Source: Eledone cirrhosa
Taxonomy: Eukaryota
Length of the DNA: 64,000 nt
Direction of reading: 5' to 3'
Assembly: GCA_964016885.1 (NCBI GenBank)
Contig: OZ024755.1
Coordinates: forward strand, 17,484,001 to 17,548,000
The notes beneath the pieces are model-generated. The model had not been told where the DNA came from. It worked only from the letters and a program-made list of their open reading frames with translations, and did not search any database. Position numbers and translations under genes: made by a program. Numbering within the stretch: the first letter of the stretch is position 1; each line of letters opens with the position of its first letter. This document shows positions 2,796 through 62,400 of this stretch, in pieces.

Positions 2796-3016
2796 TATAA
2801 ACGTTAGAATATGTGTAATAAGGCCAAGACAATGCAGATATGGACATAGAAAAAGAATGCAATAGTGAGAGATATTGATGAGGATTCGTCTTTCACCTTG
2901 AATTTATTTAAATAAATTCAAGGTGAAAGACGAATCCTCATCAATATCTCTCACTATTGCATTCTTTTTCTATGTCCATATCTGCATTGTCTTGGCCTTA
3001 TTACACATATTCTAAC

Positions 3017-3023
<7 letters not shown>
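2796..3023. repeat. Perfect 228-bp spacer-less palindrome
   Basis: Arms 2796-2909 and 2910-3023 are exact reverse complements as read by eye. Abuts (TA)n. Confidence 0.95.
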
Positions 3024-23382: not shown

Positions 23383-23556
23383 GAACACTGGAAGGTAATA
23401 TCCGTAGTGGTAGAACACTCAGTCCATGGGACGAGTTAGGTGGAAGTGGTTACACAATAGTTAGTTCACCATACTGAGAACAATTGTTTCACCTTATGCA
23501 GATCTTCAGCACGGACTAATTATTCTCGGTATGGTGAACTAACTGTTGTGTTACCA

Positions 23557-23604
<48 letters not shown>

Positions 23605-24090
23605 GAGGTTATATTTAATTTGTTGGGATACAACAAGCTAAAAATATTTTAATTTAAATATTCTGTTATTTAAACCTTTCCGACACCCATTTGCATACTA
23701 AATCATAACAATAAATCTAATATCTCCACTATCCAGGAAGCTCCAACCGTTAAGGTTGCATTTTTCAGGGTATGTCAATATTTATTTATAAAACTAATCT
23801 GTATTGTATTTTATCTGATGAAAGCGCACCATAATCTGCCTTGGTGACCCTTGAAATATGTATAATAAAATAAATATGGTTTTATAAATATAGTTTCCAT
23901 TTGTTAATATATTGTATATATATATATATATACTGAGATAAAAGTTAAGTAGAAATATCCAAGAGTAAGAGTACTCAGTCCATAGGACGAGTTTAATATA
24001 AATAATTACAACAGTGACATAAACAGGTATTCAAGTTTCCTTGGGTTCTGGGGCCCAATTTCTTCAGCCTTTTTCAGCATTTTTCTCATG

Positions 24091-24140
24091 ACAGACTGAA
24101 GAAATTGGGGCCCAGAACCCAACGAAACTTGAGTACCTGT
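24091..24140 (+). ncRNA. Hammerhead ribozyme motif (inverted twin at 24023-24072 on minus strand)
   Basis: ACAGa-CUGAAGA-aaUUGGG(gcccagaa)CCCAAc-GAAA-CUUGAG-UA-cCUGU. The consensus of the two copies gives a perfect stem I ACAGG/CCUGU. Confidence 0.65.
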
Positions 24141-24959
24141 TTATGTCACTGTAATTATTTGTATATATATATATTTAAGTAAACGAGGTATCGTTTAAGG
24201 CAATCCAAGTAGCCAATCTGTGTTTTCTTCACTCCTTTATTAAATATATATATCATCATCATCATCGTTTAACCTCTATCTTCCATGCTAGCATGGGTTA
24301 GACGATATATACATATATATACGTATTTAATGTCCAAGTGGCTGAGCATTTCACAGATGTGTATTCTTAATGTATATATCATCGTCATCATCATCATCAT
24401 CGTTTAACGTCTATCTTCCATGCTAGCATGGGTTTAGATGTCTATGAATATATCATCTAACCCACATATTCCTCCGTTTATATTTGAGTATATACTCGAA
24501 TATAAGCTGAGGAATATGTAACCAAAAAATCAATGGTAGAAAGTGGGGTGAGCTTATATTTGGGGTCAATAGTTTGACAATTTTCGCCAACTTTAAATTC
24601 TACATAAATAATGTTTGGACTTTGGCCCATTTCTCAGACATAAAATAGTGGGATAGGGCTTATAGTCAAGTATATATAGTAATTCTCATTGAGCCAAATA
24701 CCATGAAAACACTGGGGTCAACTTTGCCTTTCATTCATTCAAAGTCGATAAAAAATTTACTGGGATCGATTCTTACTTTATATCTCAGTCTCACTTCCAT
24801 CTTTTCACTTCCATTCTCTTCAAATCTGCTATATTCAGACCTGGGGATGATTGGGCTCTGCCAGGTTTTAAAATGGTCACACATTCTAATATTACAACAT
24901 GAAAGATTAAATAGTTTATAATGAAGAAAATGATATAATAATAATGAAAATATTGTGTA

Positions 24960-29255: not shown

Positions 29256-30540
29256 CAGGGTGCGGACGATATTTGTTCGCAAGATTACTGTCTAGGAAAA
29301 AATAACACAGTAGTTTTATTTTTTAAGATATATTTATCAAACTTGTCAGTTTGTCTTCATGGCTTGTTCTTTCGATCTCACTCGATTAACCCGCAATTGG
29401 CTTTGATGACGGCCTCAAGGCGGCCTCGGAACCGGGTACAGGCCTTCGTCACTGTCCCCCGACTTAGGCTCCTAAAGGCACTTGTGATCCTAGCCTTCAG
29501 ATCGTCTTTCGTATTGCAGCTAGATCTGTTGGTGTCTCGTTCCACTGCGCCCCACACAAAGAAGTCGAGGGGGTTGCAGTCAGGCGAGCTGGGAGGCCAG
29601 ATGTCAGGTGAAGTGTGGTCGACGATATTCTCTGACAGCTGGTATGGCAGGGCACTGAGTCTTGCTGCCACACGTATGGCCTACCTGCAGCTACCTGGTC
29701 AATTCAGGGCTTTACTACCTCGCTCAGAACGCGGATGTAGCCATCGGTGTTCAGCTTGAGGCCTTCAGGGAAGAAGTGAAGTGGCATGACGTCACCTTGA
29801 CTGCTGATGACACCTAAGACCAATGTTGTCACTGGAAACTTTGTCTGCATGACTCTAGGCATGTCTTTGGATGAGACAGCGAGCCACCTGTTGTTCTGGG
29901 AGTTGATCAGCTGGTCTTGGCAAAAGTTTTTCTCGTCGGAGAAAAACCACAGCATGTCTGGCTCCAGTGGGTGTTTCAACTTGTTGATCAGCTTCTTTGC
30001 GTGCTTCAGTCGCTTTTCTTGCATCGCCTTTGACAGAAATTGTCCTTTCCTCATCTTGTATGAAACGTAGCGAAGGTCTTCATGTACCACCAGCCTAATG
30101 AGCTTTTCATCCACGCCTTTCTCCCTTGCAATGGCACGCATCGACTTGCTAGGTTCATTGTTGATGATATCCTGAACTTCAGTGATGAACTCGGGCGTTC
30201 TGGAGGCGTCAGATTGCCGATCATGTGTTTTCCTCTCTGATGTTCCTTCGTAGTCGAATCCTGAATCTTCCAATTCCTTTCTGACCTTTTCCACCATTCT
30301 CCTGCTGATGCTGAGAAAGTCTGAAATTTCCTTATTTGTCCTCCCGGCGCAGATTCCAAGAAGAACTCTGTGTCTCTTCCACAAATTTGGAGGTTCACAA
30401 TTATTCATAATCAATTATTCTGAAAATAAATAATGGAAATATAGTCACTGTTTTTATGAAGACAAGAGTGACAACTGAAGTAAAAAAATTTGCATAAAAT
30501 TAGCAGTTGAAAATTGCGAACAAATATCGTCCACACCCTG
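29256..30540 (-). mobile_element. Full-length Tc1/mariner-superfamily DNA transposon (maT/DD37D-like), 1285 bp
   Basis: 27-bp terminal inverted repeats CAGGGTG(C/T)GGACGATATTTGTTCGCAA with 1 mismatch, TA on both sides, and an internal transposase. Confidence 0.95.
29378..30414 (-). pseudogene. Disabled DDD transposase
   Basis: N-terminal HTH-like region and motifs FSDEKNF, YVWQQDSVPCH and WPPSSPDCNPLDFFVW. In-frame TGA at 29704-29706 and a frameshifting deletion between the 2nd and 3rd catalytic Asp. Confidence 0.9.
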
Positions 30541-32329: not shown

Positions 32330-32527
32330 ATTTATAACATTAAATTAGAAGTCAAATGTTATATATATAAAATAAACATATCAAATATATATATAATAAA
32401 CATATCAAACAATTACAGGGTAATTTGTAAAGAGCGTAGACTCTTTACAAATTATCCCCTGTAATTGTTTGATGTGTTTATTTTATATAAATATGTCATT
32501 CGACTTTTAATTTAATGTTAATAAATG
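32330..32527. repeat. Imperfect palindrome, about 90-100-bp arms
   Basis: ...aattacagggtaatttgtaaagag cgtaga ctctttacaaattatcccctgtaatt... Confidence 0.85.
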
Positions 32528-43995: not shown

Positions 43996-44339
43996 ATCAT
44001 CATCATTTCATTTCATTTTACGTCCGCTTTTTCCCTGCTTGCAAGGGTGGGACGGAAACTGATGCTGGCTTGATTTCTACAGCTGGATGCCCTTCCTAAC
44101 ACCAACCTCATTTACAGTGAGTGCTGGGTGCTTTTTTGCCGTGGCACCTCCACAACCACTTTGCAGTGGAATGATATGGACCTCAGTCCCTATCATCTCA
44201 TTTCTACAGCTGAGTAAACTGGAGCAATGTGAAATAAAGTGTCTTGCTCAAGGAAACAACACATCACCCAGTCTGAGAATTGAACTCACAACCTTTTGAT
44301 TGCAAGTCCAATGCTCTAACCACTAAGCCATGTGCCTCC
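43996..44339 (-). mobile_element. tRNA-derived SINE (same family as 1674-2028)
   Basis: Near-identical reverse-complement copy. Confidence 0.88.
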
Positions 44340-45841: not shown

Positions 45842-45877
45842 TTTTAACGTTTCGGACACTAGTCCTTCATCAGAAAA
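45842..45877 (-). ncRNA. Minimal type-I hammerhead ribozyme motif
   Basis: Minus strand UUUU-CUGAUGA-a-GGAC(UAGU)GUCC-GAAA-CG-UU-AAAA: stem I, stem II, palindromic AACGUU stem III, GUU cleavage triplet. Confidence 0.72.
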
Positions 45878-50329: not shown

Positions 50330-50863
50330 TTAAGAGTTAATAATTGTTTCTACTTTTGGCACAAGGCCAGCAATTACCCAGTACATTACTGGTACTTTAT
50401 TTTATCGACCCCGAAAGGATGAAAGGCAAAGTTAACCTCGGCGGGATTTGAACTCAGTCCGTAAAGGGACGTAACTATACTGGAAAGCATGGCGTCCGAC
50501 TCTCTACCGATACTGCCAATCCACTGCCCTAAGAGTTAATAATGAAAATGGTTTATTGTATATTACTAAATCTCTCCGAAGTTAGCTTTATTTTTCATCC
50601 TTACGGAATCAATAAAATAAAGTACCAGTAATGCACTGAGGCCAATTTATTCAACTTTCGCCTCCCACAAAATTGATGGCCTTGTGCCAAAAGTAGAACC
50701 AATTATTAACTCTTAACATTTTGCACCACAGTGGAAATTATCCTGAAACCATGTGGCTGCTTTGCAAATTTCTTAACCACACAACCATCCTTGCATTTAT
50801 ATTTCATATATCAAACATTTTGGACACAGTTGGGTTATAAATTTATACTTTCATTCCTTTCAG

Positions 50864-51076
50864 ATGCTAAAATCAGAAATTGAGAAAAAGCAACCTTATA
50901 TTAATTCATTGAAGGACATATCTATGCATACATCCTTTGATAATAAGGATCCTGTTAAATCTAAAGCAAAGGACGATATCCATATCACATCAGCCCTTGC
51001 TTATGCTCTATTGAACCAGATCTCTACAAGCATGTCTATACTTGAATCAAGGACCGACTTCAACAAGAAGATACTG
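50864..51076 (+). CDS. SYNE1: Nesprin-1-like exon L (end of last spectrin repeat)
   Basis: ttcAG acceptor, CTG|GTAAGT donor, 213 nt, phase 0 to 0. MLKSEIEKKQPYINSLKDIS...AKDDIHIT...LLNQISTSMSILE compares with recalled human IKHELLESQLRVASLQDMS...AKEKVHVI...LLKEVSRHIKELE. Confidence 0.87.
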
Positions 51077-52016
51077 GTAAGTAAGAGATATGTACTTGTA
51101 CATGGTAGATATTATCAAAAATGTTCAGTTTTAAAGCTTATGATGTATACATGTGACCATATCTATGTTACATCATGGGCCAGGACTGATTTTTGCCTCC
51201 TACTAGTTTGCTGCTGTTTTTTTGTTGGGGGGGGGGGGCTCTGTTTTGTTTTTATTGGGAGACGGTAGACCCTGGTTAGCTCTAACAGTGGTTATTTTAA
51301 CCTGCAGTTGACCCCTGCATGTGGTGTTGTGCTAAATCTAATTTTGTGCTGTAAGTTTACATTTAGTGTTGAATACTGCATAAGCCTACATGGTAAAAAT
51401 AGCCATTACAAATGTGAGGGAACAGAAGTGAGGAAGAGACACAGAGGAAGCATCAGCCCCAGTACATGACTGGTACTTTTTTATTGACCTAGAATGGATG
51501 AAAGGCAAATTTGACCTGAGCAAGATTTGGACTCAGTGAGCAGAGAGCTGAAATGAATGCCGCTAAACATTCTATGCGACATTCTAATAGTTCTGCCAAT
51601 TTGCCACCTTAAGTACTGTTGGAGGCCCTGAAAATCATCATGGCTACAACTTTTCCTCCTTTGTCTATATTCTGTAAAAAGAAAATTATTTTGAAATAAT
51701 GGACATTGCTGGTATATAAAAGAAATAATATATAAGTACTTTTATTTAGCCATCTTTATGTTTGGCTTGGTATTTTAACCTCTTCAGTGCCGTAGACGAG
51801 ATAACTCGTCCTAACATGTCTGCATTCAAGTGCCACAGATGAGATAATTCATCCTAGCATGTTAGAACTATTTTCTAGCAGTCCATAACTTCGAAGCTAG
51901 ATGGGGTTACTAGTTTATTGATGTGACATTTGTCAATCATTCAGATATGTGTTGTTAATACATATTTGTTTTAAAAAATAGTCATTTTACTGAAAATAAA
52001 CCCAGCACAGCAACTG

Positions 52017-54909: not shown

Positions 54910-55085
54910 ATATTGTTATACTTTGGGAGGGTCATGTTGCCAATAAGAAACACACACACCAGTTGCTTTCACTCCAATTTATTATAAATTAAATTTATAA
55001 ATTTAATTTATAATAAATTGGAGTGAAAGCAACTGGTGCGTGTGTTTCTTATTGGCAACATGACCCTCCCAAAGCATAACAATAT
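54910..55085. repeat. Near-perfect 176-bp spacer-less palindrome
   Basis: Arms 54910-54997 and 54998-55085 with about 2 mismatches. Confidence 0.92.
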
Positions 55086-55122
55086 GTATATGTATATATG
55101 TGTATATGTATATATATATATG

Positions 55123-55170
<48 letters not shown>

Positions 55171-55220
55171 ATGTAAATAAATATACATGGGTGTGTATGA
55201 TTGTGTATAGAAGATTATAT

Positions 55221-55522
55221 TAATAAAAGGAATTCCAACTTTGTCTGATTAACTCGTTTTATTTACAATCCTCTAAAATTATAATGATATTATAATGGAA
55301 TAGTATGGTAGAATATTAAATGTTAATTGATCAGTGGTGACAGTCAAGTTTGCATTCAAACTTGACTGTCACCACTGAATATGAACCTGAAGATTGTGAA
55401 AGCATGAAAGTACTTGTTCAATTAACATTTAATATTCTACCATACTATTTCATTATAATATCATTATAATTTTAGAGGATTGTAAATAAAACGAGTTAAT
55501 CAGACAAAGTTGGAATTCCTTT

Positions 55523-55525
<3 letters not shown>
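55221..55525. repeat. Foldback element with about 110-bp arms enclosing a hairpin and a hammerhead motif
   Basis: Arms about 55221-55330 and 55418-55525. Inner hairpin 55331-55378. Confidence 0.9.
55382..55420 (+). ncRNA. Minimal type-I hammerhead ribozyme motif
   Basis: UGAAC-CUGAAGA-uUGU(GAAA)GCAu-GAAA-GUAC-UU-GUUCA: perfect 5-bp stem I, both core boxes, stem II with GAAA loop, palindromic stem III (AAGUACUU). Confidence 0.75.
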
Positions 55526-55585
<60 letters not shown>

Positions 55586-55713
55586 GTATATATATATGTA
55601 TATATATATATGTATATATATATATATGTATATATATATATGAATATGTATATATATGTATATATATATATGAATATATATATATATGTATATATATGTA
55701 TATATATATATGA

Positions 55714-55761
<48 letters not shown>

Positions 55762-56107
55762 GTAGGCACATGGCTTAGTGGTTAGAGCATTGGTCTTGCA
55801 ATCGACAGGTTGTGAGTTCAATTCTCAGACCGGGTGATGTGTTGTTTCCTTGAGCAAGACACTTTATTTCACATTGCTCCAGTTTACTCAGCTGTAGAAA
55901 TGAGATGATAGGCACTGGGGTCCATATCATTCCACTGCAAAGTGGTCGTGGAGGTGTCACGGCAAAAAAGCACCCAGCACTCACTGTAAATGAGGTTGGT
56001 GTTAGGAAGGGCATCCAGCTGTAGAAATCAAGCCAGAATCAGTTCCCGTCCCACCCTTGCAAGCAGGGAAAAAGCGACGTAAAATGAAATGATGATGATG
56101 ATGATGA
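55762..56107 (+). mobile_element. tRNA-derived SINE (same family as 1674-2028)
   Basis: Near-identical copy inserted in (TA)n. Confidence 0.88.
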
Positions 56108-58140
<2,033 letters not shown>

Positions 58141-58380
58141 CAGAGCTGATGGAAGTCCAACACACACCACATAAATAAATAGATAAATACATATATATAT
58201 ACATATATATATATGTATATATATGTAAATATATATATATATGTATATATATGTATATATATGTATTTATCTATTTATTTATTTATTTATGTGGTGTGTG
58301 TTGGACTTCCATCAGCTCTGACGATGAGTATTTCAGTTGTTGAAACAATGGATCAGGCAGCTCATCAAATTAACATATAT

Positions 58381-59437
58381 CAGGTGTACATCAGGGTTCA
58401 GTCCTCAGCCCGCTCTTGTTCATTCATTATAGTCCTCCAAGCCATAACAGAGGAGTTTAAGACTGGCTGCCCATGGGAACTTCTCTATGCTGATGATCTG
58501 GTTCTTATAGCAGAATCAGTAGAGGAGCTAGAGAATAAATTCTGGCTATGGGAACAGCAGTTGGAATCAAGAGGACTGAGAGTGAACATAGCTAAGACAA
58601 AAGTGTTGATATGTAGAAGAGAGGACAATACTCTGATTCCATCATGGAAATGGCCATGTTCGACATGTAGGAAAGGAACTGGCATAAATTCCATAAAATG
58701 TAAGCAATGCAGATCTTGGGTACACAAGAGATGTAGTGGGATAACAGGTAGGGAAAACTATGTATGCAGTAGATGTACAGGGAAAGTTGGCAGTAGTAAT
58801 CGCAGTGATAGATACATTTTTCCAATGCAGGCGGGTTATATAGAAGTCGTTGATAGCTTCCGGTACCTAGGTGATCAGATTAGCATGGGAGGGGGTGTTC
58901 CGAGGTCATAGTATCTAGAATAAGGATGGGTTGGAAGAAGTTTAGGGAGCTGCTTCCTCTGCTGACAAAGAAGGGTTTCTCCCTGCGTATGAAAGGACGG
59001 TTATATGATGCCTGTGTGAGGTGCGCGATGCTGCATGGTAGTGAGACATGGGCAGCAACTGCAGAAGATATGCTCCGTTGGATGTGCAATGTCAATGTGC
59101 ATGAACGACCAAGCATAGACGAGTTGAGAAAGAAACTGGGTATAAGAGGGATAAGTTGTGGTGTGCAGGAGAGAAGGATGAAATGTTATGGACATGTGAT
59201 GCGCATGGAGGATGACCGCTGGGTAAAGAAGTGCCAAGAAATCCCAGTAGAAGGAAGACGCGGTAGAGGTAGACTACGAAAAACATGGGCGGAGGTGGTG
59301 AGAGCAGACCTCAAATTGCTGAAACTCGCGGAGGAGATGACGAAGGACCGTGACAAGTGGAGAGATGCTGTGCTGAATAGGACCCGTCCCACCCTTGCAA
59401 GCAGGGAAAAGCGGACGTAAAATGATGATGATGATGA
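58381..59437 (+). mobile_element. 5'-truncated RTE-clade LINE (RT with frameshifts, Cys/His finger insert, (GAT)n tail)
   Basis: GVHQGSVLSP...LFIIVLQAITEEFKTGCPWELLYADDL, FRYLG, MLHGSETW, GHVMRMED, GRLRKTW, DRDKWR motifs. 3' end cccttgcaagcagggaaaagcggacgtaaaatgatgatgat. Confidence 0.92.
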
Positions 59438-62400
59438 TACACACACATATCTATATATGTACACACATATGTTTATATATATATATATGGTGTACCTAAT
59501 CTAAACCATATATATATATCTATATGGTTTAGATTAGGTACACCATATCCCTGTTTATTGTAAATAGCATCTAAACCCCCACTGACCAATGGGGTTCACA
59601 AACCATAGGTCCCCAACCACTAGACTGTAGCATTAGATCAAGACATACACTGCCACAAAGGGTTAAATAAAAAAGTACCAGTAATGCACTGGGTAATTGC
59701 TGGCCTTGTGCCAAACGTAGAAACAATTATTATTATAACATTTAATTAAGTATTTAGATTGGCAGAATTGGTAAAGCACCAATCAAAGGCTTTGCAGCAT
59801 TTGTTCTGCTTCTTTATGTTCTGATATAAAATCCATTCGAGGTCAATTTTTCCTTTCAAATATTAAGGTTGATATAATGTACTTTTCTCTTCCTCATTAT
59901 CCCCATTCACTCAATTACTGACATTGCACCTAAATTAAAAATAACATTATTACTAAAGAGTTTCAGAATAAGTGATGTATCACCTTTACCACTATCAAAG
60001 AGATGACTGTTGAAGTGAAATATAGCACAAACAAAAAGAAACTGTGATAACTTAAAAGTGTGTATCAATTTCTTTGAATGTTGATCGCAGTATAATATTT
60101 TAATACTATACATAGAAATTAAAGTCATCTAATTAATGTAATAAAAAACCTCAAAAACATTGGCTTAGTTTTACCTAAGATATATATTTTTCAAAACTGA
60201 ATGACTTCTACATATAAGTATCTATTCTATTTTTGTATAAAAGGGTATAATCTCTTATTAAAACCTATTATGTCAGATTACAAATATCTCAGAGTTATTC
60301 AGGAAAAAATTATTTTTGCTTTGATAATATTAGCTCTATGCCATAGATGCTGAGAAAAAGACATTTACTATTCTTCCTAAATCTATGTATTTTCAGTTCT
60401 AAGTCTTTCATGATATTTCACAAGTCCATTAACTCTTTTGTTGGCAAACTGGCTTGAAACTATTTCTAGCTCTGCAATACAAAGTTGGATATCTTAAAGT
60501 ATCATCATTGTCATCAGTTTTAACATCTTATTTTCCATACTTGCATGGGTTAGACGGGCGGGTTGTCCATGTTATGAGAGATGTATGGCCAGTTGGCTGC
60601 ATCATACTTTGCTCAAACAGAACTGTATTATGGCTGGGTATTTTTACAGCTGGATACCCTTCCTAATACCAACCACATTTACATGTATTATATTTATTAG
60701 GTGACATGACAAAAAGCACCCAGCCCTCATTGTAAAGTGGTCATGTAGGTGTCACAACAAAAAGCACCCTGTACATACTGTGAATACGGTTGACATTAGG
60801 AAAGAAATCTAGTCATAGAAAACAAACCAGAACCAGTTCTGTATGAGCAAGACATGGTCACCTGATCTGACTTGACTCACAATGAGACAATTCATCTAAC
60901 CCATGCTAGTGTGAAAAAGTGGACATAGAACGGTGATGATGAGGATGATCTAAAACCCTTCCATCATAATTTCATGTAAGAACCTTTTTTAAGTTATGTT
61001 CCAAACACCAGCTTAATATTTAAAAACTCAGTTATATTATTAAATTCTGCCAAATGAAAATAATGGGCAAGTCTTTAATAGAAATACTAGCAGAAAAACC
61101 ACCCTTCAGGTGGTTTTCTGCTTGCATGTGTAGTGTGTATATTCATATTATACCCAGGTATATACATAATATTGATATTATACGCAGGTATATATACATG
61201 TAGATATGATATATCAAATAAAATCGTAATTGACACTATATAATACATAGAAATTGAACGAAGACTGGGTTACACTGTCTTATTTAATCAGTAACATAAT
61301 CCATGATACATTAAAAAAGACAATATTATATATAAACTGCATTAGGAGAAAATTAGTATGTTTATTTAAGCAATGGCCAACCGGAAGTTGTTGACATTTC
61401 AGAAATTTTAAAGAAGTGAATCTTTAAATAAACAAAATATATTCAAGCCACAAAATTTAGTAGATAAATTATGTAATATTCATTCATTATTTATTCAAAG
61501 TAATCCAACTTATTTTACTAATGGGATAAAAAAAATTATAAACCGTACACAGTCCCGCGTTCCTCCCTTTATTACAGTTTAGATTGTAATGAAAAGGTAA
61601 AATTCTTTTTTTTTTTCTTGCACAAAAATTAGAAATTAGTTATTAATATAATTTATGTTAGTTGAACTAATTAATTCTCATGTAATTAGAATTTTGTTTA
61701 GTTATATATCTCAATATTACTAGTATTTTATTTTATCCACCCCATAAAGATGAAAGGCAAACCTAACGTTAGTGGTATTTGAACTCAGAACATAGAGGGT
61801 CATAACTATATATAATTAATAAGTTTACTTCACAACCATAAAGTTCCAGGTTCAATCCCATTGCATGAACGCTTGGGCAAGTTTTATTTACTAAAGCCTC
61901 AAGTCAACCCTAGCTCTGTGACTGAAGCCATTCGGAAGCTTGTCATCCTTGTCACATACTGTCTTATACTGTTTCTTCTTAAGAATTATGTCAAACAAGA
62001 CCTGTAAGTGAAATTGGGGAGACAGAAACCATTTCGAAGTTTGTCAGATGGATTCTACTCCTAATTCAAAGGGTCAGCCTTGTCACATACTATGTTATTC
62101 TGAATCCTCCTAAGAATAACGTTAAGGGTACACATGTCTGTGGAATGCTCAGACACTTGCATATTCATTTTATGAGCGGGCTGTTTCCATTACTTGTCAA
62201 CAAAACCTCTGAAGATTCATTCTATCTCACTAAAAATCTGAACGAAACTACAACAAAAATATATGAATATAAATACTCAGAACATGAAATAGTATTGGAA
62301 TGTTTAGAACTCGTTGAATGAAATAGTTATATTTGCCATGTAATTCTTAAGATTTTTCAAAAAGTTATTTTAAATCCAAATCTACTCACATCAGACAGAT

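Follow-up and report, generated by a model that had tools for sequence, protein, structure and literature searches.

A hammerhead-bearing foldback in a nesprin gene of Eledone cirrhosa as an inverted pair of Penelope-like element ends

Introduction

Does a long foldback that carries a hammerhead ribozyme motif act on the gene in which it lies, or is it the trace of a mobile element? The question is raised by a 64,000-nucleotide stretch of Eledone cirrhosa DNA, referred to here as the window (GenBank assembly GCA_964016885.1, contig OZ024755.1, positions 17,484,001 to 17,548,000, forward strand; coordinates below are those of the window). An earlier note on this DNA, made from the sequence alone, described positions 55221 to 55525 as a nested architecture in which a foldback of about 110 bp encloses a 22-bp hairpin and an intact sense-strand hammerhead, and proposed that it could cleave read-through nesprin pre-mRNA or act as a conformational switch.

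Penelope-like elements (PLEs) are known to combine several of these features. The available passages of PMC8557442 describe PLE insertions with an inverted truncated copy, a one-sided tail and a bias toward microsatellites, and call the function of the hammerhead unclear; a one-sided tail on inverted pairs is a PLE signature in the portions of PMC8557442 and PMC11167929 drawn on here. According to excerpts of PMC4209133, minimal hammerheads are dispersed by the thousands, with opposite-strand pairs 100-700 bp apart and a highly conserved G10.1-C11.1 pair; a single schistosome hammerhead motif was inactive, such motifs needing a dimer. The excerpted parts of PMC11167929 report that the Anolis hammerhead needed the element's protein, that both target strands were extended in vitro and that no RNA reads were seen at the cut site. 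In cephalopods, recently active Penelope-like families occur in Octopus vulgaris (PMC13282606, whose passages at hand do not mention hammerheads). The passages of PMC8557442 and PMC11167929 settle neither the route by which PLEs come to form inverted repeats nor the occurrence of hammerhead cleavage in vivo.

Results

The foldback is a single inverted repeat with a deletion in one arm

The near-perfect foldback and its enclosed hairpin are present much as originally described. Outer arms at 55223-55330 and 55418-55525 pair over 108 bp with a single mismatch (55298/55450), and pairing in the window sequence extends to 55216/55532 with one additional mismatch; within them, 55331-55352 pairs with 55357-55378 to form a 22-bp hairpin with a 4-nt loop. 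The 305-nt stretch has a predicted folding energy of −196.5 kcal/mol (z-score −38 relative to 100 shuffles). The nesting is no special device. When the left arm was reverse-complemented and aligned with the right one, a single 39-nt gap remained, 55379-55417, which comprises the entire hammerhead, so both stems are two parts of the same left arm and the nesting is one inverted repeat with a private deletion in that arm.

The right arm (55357..55530, + strand) is a 5'-truncated pLTR copy that includes the hammerhead and lacks a tail. Among 52 listed matches in the genome, the best 43 are 95-98% identical to it, and it is colinear with the 3' end of copies bearing RT and GIY-YIG. The left arm, on the − strand, consists of two pieces of one inverted pLTR copy: a 3' part at 55218..55330 (113 nt, 98% identity to 55418-55530), which ends 2 nt downstream of the predicted hammerhead cut, and a 5' piece at 55331..55354, previously taken for the left strand of the hairpin and joined to the first across the deletion. 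Only the left arm carries a PLE tail, the first ~45 nt of element body past the pLTR end (55171..55217, − strand), so that the element reaches further left than had been noted, to about 55171; this boundary is approximate, as the tail merges into (TA)n. Microsatellites of the (TA)n type flank the pair at 55086..55170, the likely insertion target, and at 55531..55763.

Other foldbacks lie in the window. At 54910-55085, only 90 bp left of the element, another near-perfect palindrome represents the folded-back end of a distinct PLE-like family, which has 42 genomic matches and GIY-YIG-like and RT-like ORFs beside several copies. Further foldback palindromes adjoining (TA)n tracts, at 2796-3023 (228 bp, 100% perfect), 23996-24164, 23444-23559, 32382-32495, 58140-58321 and 59485-59548, are likely other PLE ends.

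The repeat belongs to an abundant Penelope-like family

A 30-nt hammerhead-core probe returned 5,909 exact matches in the genome (2,964 forward, 2,945 reverse) and its reversed control none. Searching the genome with the right arm gave 1,689 candidates, 40 of which were scored; these yielded 52 matches, with identities of 95-98% among the best. Exact probes counted 136 occurrences for the TATA region and 438 for the sequence immediately before the hammerhead, figures that cannot be read as copy ratios, since subfamilies differ there.

In long copies, RT and GIY-YIG domains lie upstream of the repeat and colinear with it. Copy L031 has a 531-aa ORF with a YLDD motif and an RVT_1 match (E 5.5e-06, 26.7 bits, below the Pfam curated cut-off of 29.6), copy L002 has a C-terminal GIY-YIG domain (PF01541, 26.8 bits against a cut-off of 22.6), and translations of copies L017 and L026 contain a CX4CX2C linker between RT and nuclease. 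The nearest named RT relatives are bivalve proteins, up to 63% identical, many of which contain both RVT_1 and GIY-YIG. L031 (G000:C12, 3235-7362) is a near-full-length family copy with a broken ORF, a GIY-YIG region, a 3' UTR, a TATA box and the hammerhead; a partial upstream pLTR repeat (a partial tandem) precedes its ORF. The ~45 nt that directly follow this repeat, at the pLTR-to-ORF junction, match the tail at 55171-55217.

An RT followed by GIY-YIG, with a CX4CX2C linker before the nuclease, is the arrangement of canonical C-terminal EN+ PLEs of the Neptune/Nematis type in the sections of PMC8557442 used here, and both features, the order of domains and the linker, are consistent with either clade, Neptune or Nematis, by the definitions in those sections. 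Also shared with EN+ PLEs as described there are the partial-tandem pLTR of L031, the 5' truncation, the inverted truncated copy, the tail at one end, the (TA)n flanks and the pLTR hammerhead, whereas the locus copy consists of only two pLTR ends and has no ORF. The locus copy is an ordinary one among thousands of PLE ends. Non-LTR retrozymes, as portrayed in parts of bioRxiv 10.64898/2026.07.22.740005 and PMC7229834, are likewise non-coding, hammerhead-bearing and PLE-related, but they are head-to-tail tandem repeats with at least two hammerheads; we rejected this assignment for a locus with head-to-head arms, one sense hammerhead and no other copy in 144 kb.

The hammerhead retains its core but has a weakened stem II

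The hammerhead (55382..55420, + strand) is the minimal type I motif of the family pLTR. It comprises stem I at 55382-86/55416-20, CUGAAGA at 55387-93, a stem II region at 55394-55405, GAAA at 55406-09, a palindromic stem III and CUU at 55413-15, with a predicted cut 3' of 55415, and thus has the core (CUGANGA, GAAA, NUH), stem I and palindromic stem III of minimal PLE hammerheads. A relaxed scan for such motifs covered both strands of 144 kb, made up of the window and the 80 kb that follow it; five matches were returned, among them this one, and 30 shuffles gave none. A strict scan, which demanded the first stem II pair, missed the motif because it has no G10.1-C11.1 pair, and an Rfam search of the locus at gathering and E-value thresholds gave no match to a hammerhead family.

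The earlier description of an intact minimal hammerhead is therefore accurate for the core and not for stem II. At the stem II base, a U lies opposite a U in place of G10.1-C11.1; this holds for the locus copy as well as for the most frequent form of the family, to which 59 of 100 arms are identical. Position 55397 is T here and C in 94 of 100 aligned family arms, which leaves a U-G instead of a C-G pair to close the GAAA loop; constrained folding gives −2.7 kcal/mol for the locus copy vs −5.0 kcal/mol for a family copy with C at 55397. Relative to the metazoan PLE minimal hammerheads in the cited portions of PMC4209133, the motif shares type I topology, a 5-bp stem I, intact core boxes and a palindromic stem III for dimer folding, and the family likewise has single motifs dispersed by the thousands, with pairs on opposite strands at a spacing of 100-700 bp; the absence of G10.1-C11.1, a stem II of 3 pairs against the published 6-8 bp, and the CUU triplet set it apart.

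Across the family, core and stem I are intact in 71 of 100 arms overall and in only 13 of the 33 arms sampled regardless of motif: inserted hammerheads decay. The 100 young family arms contained no compensatory stem changes. Subfamily differences amount to 8.0% upstream of the motif, 1.7% inside it and 3.2% downstream, a pattern that is partly a sampling effect. Related sequences from contig loose ends of two public runs of other samples keep the core, have a longer stem II and carry either U or A at position 17. Active master elements probably contain a functional motif.

The region contains other hammerheads. One at 45846-45873 (− strand) is more canonical (CUGAUGA, an extra A, G10.1-C11.1, a 4-bp stem II and a palindromic stem III); it is antisense within the same nesprin gene, 9 kb upstream of the foldback, and probably belongs to another PLE family. 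Three more from the relaxed scan, with long stem II, lie about 25.6, 25.9 and 54.3 kb past the window end (L037, L040), two of them as an opposite-strand pair ~270 bp apart.

Predicted folding argues against cleavage or switching in nesprin pre-mRNA

By tblastn, successive exons for a nesprin-like protein, P0001, were placed on the + strand between 13169 and 51079. The nearest upstream homology-supported exon is a spectrin-repeat exon at 50837..51079 (E 7e-12), part of a colinear series that runs to a KASH exon beyond the window (Pfam E 5.8e-26), 43 kb downstream of the foldback element. A protein search with the spectrin exon gave no match, and one with the KASH exon succeeded. The hammerhead is thus on the sense strand inside the nesprin gene, the orientation first proposed; the last homology-supported exon, however, ends near 51077, about 4.1 kb upstream and not the 2 kb previously given. 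Because the KASH exon is downstream, the element would sit in ordinary intronic pre-mRNA and not in the supposed read-through transcript, unless a KASH-less isoform ends here. This terminal KASH exon (L038, 4666-5331) has a splice phase that mismatches the donors read at 51077 and 51081, so a small exon may sit unrecognised between 51079 and the KASH exon, an interval in which our exon search recognised none.

The nesprin region holds further repeats: a tRNA-like SINE head at 44269-44332 (− strand), which Rfam scores as tRNA and which is similar by eye to about 55769-55832 (+ strand), and, labelled from reading their translations, an RT-like LINE fragment at 58183-59420 (+ strand) and a Tc1/mariner-like transposase fragment at 29707-30414 (− strand), both in nesprin introns.

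We then asked how the hammerhead would fold in this transcript. Predicted stem I pairing was 0.73-0.90 in an isolated 47-mer, 0.06-0.07 when only the right arm was folded and 0.04-0.12 for the entire foldback; during transcription it was 0.12-0.14 even before the right arm is made. These folding figures are equilibrium estimates from a framework in which a dimeric hammerhead cannot be modelled. Dimeric hammerhead variants of PLEs have reportedly been described by Lunse et al. The suggestion that the 3' strand of stem I overlaps the right arm and competes with arm pairing was borne out, since arm pairing occupies three of its five bases with a predicted pairing of 0.75-0.95. A conformational switch was not: in the model, stem I pairing is low whether or not the left arm is present, so that this arm does not act as one.

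It is improbable, in our estimation, that this PLE remnant still affects the gene by cutting nesprin pre-mRNA at 55415, whether as a dimer of two transcripts, aided by protein or gated by the left arm. Such activity would be in keeping with an intact core, stem I and palindromic stem III on the sense strand, with the well-paired stem I of the isolated 47-mer, with an 8-nt palindrome that can duplex at −6.6 kcal/mol, and with the related sequences in public runs, whose kept core, lengthened stem II and U/A at position 17 suggest a functional ribozyme in the family. Cleavage at this locus is nevertheless predicted to be unlikely because stem II is weakened, because no second family copy was found within the 144 kb examined to serve as a nearby dimer partner, and because predicted stem I pairing is low. 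The copy is moreover young, one of thousands, with a junction unique to its site, and published single motifs were inactive (passages of PMC4209133) or required the PLE protein (passages of PMC11167929). We therefore favor a PLE pair that is likely inert in its intron. If a 108-bp intronic duplex is transcribed, A-to-I editing is the likelier effect.

The left-arm deletion is private to this locus

The 21-mer across the left-arm deletion junction occurs once in the 3.0-Gb genome. In the sequence, 55376-79 can pair with 55417-20 as a 4-bp alternative stem, and the deletion breakpoints fall exactly across this pairing, which is what a polymerase jump over the stem-loop would produce. Both arms have in common a variant at 55475 and its partner at 55273 that was seen in none of 117 other occurrences in the fetched family loci, so the arms derive from one source or were homogenised later.

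Even less probable than residual cleavage, we consider, is that the gap reflects an assembly or consensus error in a perfect palindrome, the true structure being a simple inverted pair with both hammerheads. Assemblers struggle with long palindromes that lie between microsatellites, as the passages of PMC8557442 remark for PLE insertions, and the unique junction, like any piece spanning the locus, was not found in contigs of four sequencing runs, although these may come from other individuals or species. Many other pairs, however, were assembled with both hammerheads; the layout in which one arm lacks its hammerhead recurs at locus L102 and partially at L025, with different breakpoints; and the position of the breakpoints across the alternative stem is what a polymerase jump would give.

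Foldback centres cluster at two positions across the family

Two probes first returned 60 loci, which collapse to 49 insertion sites. Inverted head-to-head pairs make up 30 of these 49 sampled sites and the other 19 are single-armed, with varying arm lengths; both 3' ends are present in 21 pairs, of which 15 carry a tail on a single side, three on neither and three on both. The least credible alternative is that the locus is a MITE, a foldback DNA transposon or a miRNA-like hairpin gene that happens to contain a hammerhead-like string: it would account for near-perfect terminal inverted arms and for weak Rfam miRNA-precursor matches to the inner hairpin (best 26.3 bits vs a gathering score of 75), but every Rfam match is far below threshold, single-armed sites, variable arm lengths and one-sided tails do not suit it, and it is ruled out by arms that are the 3' end of an RT-encoding element, with RT and GIY-YIG colinear upstream in longer copies.

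We next examined where the arms of the PLE family end. Of 79 arm 5' ends, 45 lie in a 19-nt interval whose start is about 30 nt below a TATA box; CCAAT-like motifs precede that box. A dedicated probe found foldbacks centred below the pLTR TATA box at 1,131 genomic sites. The locus copy folds about 12 nt further in than this TATA-associated cluster. Whereas this family has TATA- and CCAAT-like motifs upstream of its end cluster, Drosophila Penelope has a TATA-less internal promoter in the sections of PMC2377424 cited here. In 13 of the 24 pairs with both arms whole, the arms differ more from each other than from some unrelated arm, and in two of the 24 they are mutual nearest neighbours; the median is 5.5 differences vs 8 for random pairs. 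This divergence fits two templates per insertion and accords with the extension of both target strands seen in vitro (passages of PMC11167929), and post-insertion mutation alone could be the source of part of the pattern.

A second probe found foldbacks centred near the hammerhead cut site at 26 sites, and all ten that were fetched are family members, two of them near-identical duplicates. At 15 of the 26, neither arm ends more than about 2 nt from the predicted scissile bond; the remaining 11 have one or both arms extending further upstream and are mostly centred on the stem III palindrome. Control probes placed 20 nt upstream gave three sites and those 20 nt downstream three and two; cut-site and control probe words are similarly prevalent, except for one control built on a minor subfamily variant, found in 15 of 100 arms, for which a further probe used the major variant. 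By BLAST, none of the 79 arm ends falls at the cut site, although a 7-nt subfamily insertion shortens those alignments; by eye, one arm of L092 stops 2 nt past the cut. Most family arms span the cut site, so most templates were uncut by the hammerhead. The cut-site cluster, a weak one, would be explained if cleaved RNA had served as template, and is a possible fossil of in vivo cleavage, with RT stalling at the ribozyme fold and palindrome-guided foldback as alternatives, and with control positions that are few (two). Neither the TATA-associated nor the cut-site clustering of foldback centres was found reported in our literature search, whose coverage of key and older PLE literature is incomplete.

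Discussion

The foldback is very probably a head-to-head inverted pair of 5'-truncated PLE ends inside a nesprin gene, with the left copy lacking its hammerhead, likely produced by one retrotransposition event into a (TA)n tract and likely inert. In the mechanism we propose, the element's RT-endonuclease would nick AT-rich DNA, and reverse transcription would begin near the tail and run out where the RNA starts, shortly below the TATA box of the pLTR, a transcription start that is placed solely by the TATA/CCAAT motifs and the clustering of arm ends. Two cDNAs, or one folding back, would then join at the RNA 5' end to yield a palindrome. The left arm may have skipped the hammerhead through a polymerase jump across the stem-loop, a jump from a cleaved template or a later deletion; since it did, the hammerhead loops out between the 22-bp and 108-bp stems. 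In nesprin pre-mRNA, the long duplexes would sequester stem I and cleavage is predicted to be negligible.

Several aspects of this scheme recall PAc (Poseidon of Anolis) in vitro, for which the excerpts of PMC11167929 describe AT-rich targets, a tail set by two RT start sites and extension of both target strands. Uncleaved RNA is the main PAc template in those excerpts, and most copies here span the cut site intact. PAc differs in belonging to another clade and in RNA reads that never began or ended at the cut, according to the same excerpts, whereas a minority of genomic foldbacks here centre on it.

A bolder reading, which we put forward tentatively and regard as doubtful, is that foldback centres record RNA 5' ends, mostly the pLTR start and in a minority the ribozyme cut, which would mean that the hammerhead cuts in vivo. 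The left arm of this locus would then be cDNA of a self-cleaved RNA followed by a jump to the 5' fragment, and each insertion would use two RNA templates, as in a dimeric twin-priming complex.

The foldback is not worth pursuing as a nesprin switch. For genome scans it offers a caution: where an animal genome is rich in microsatellites, its hammerheads and long foldbacks are commonly what PLEs have left behind. More useful than the locus itself is the family-wide junction map: with thousands of young junctions in this family, both the formation of inverted repeats and hammerhead cleavage in vivo become testable by counting.
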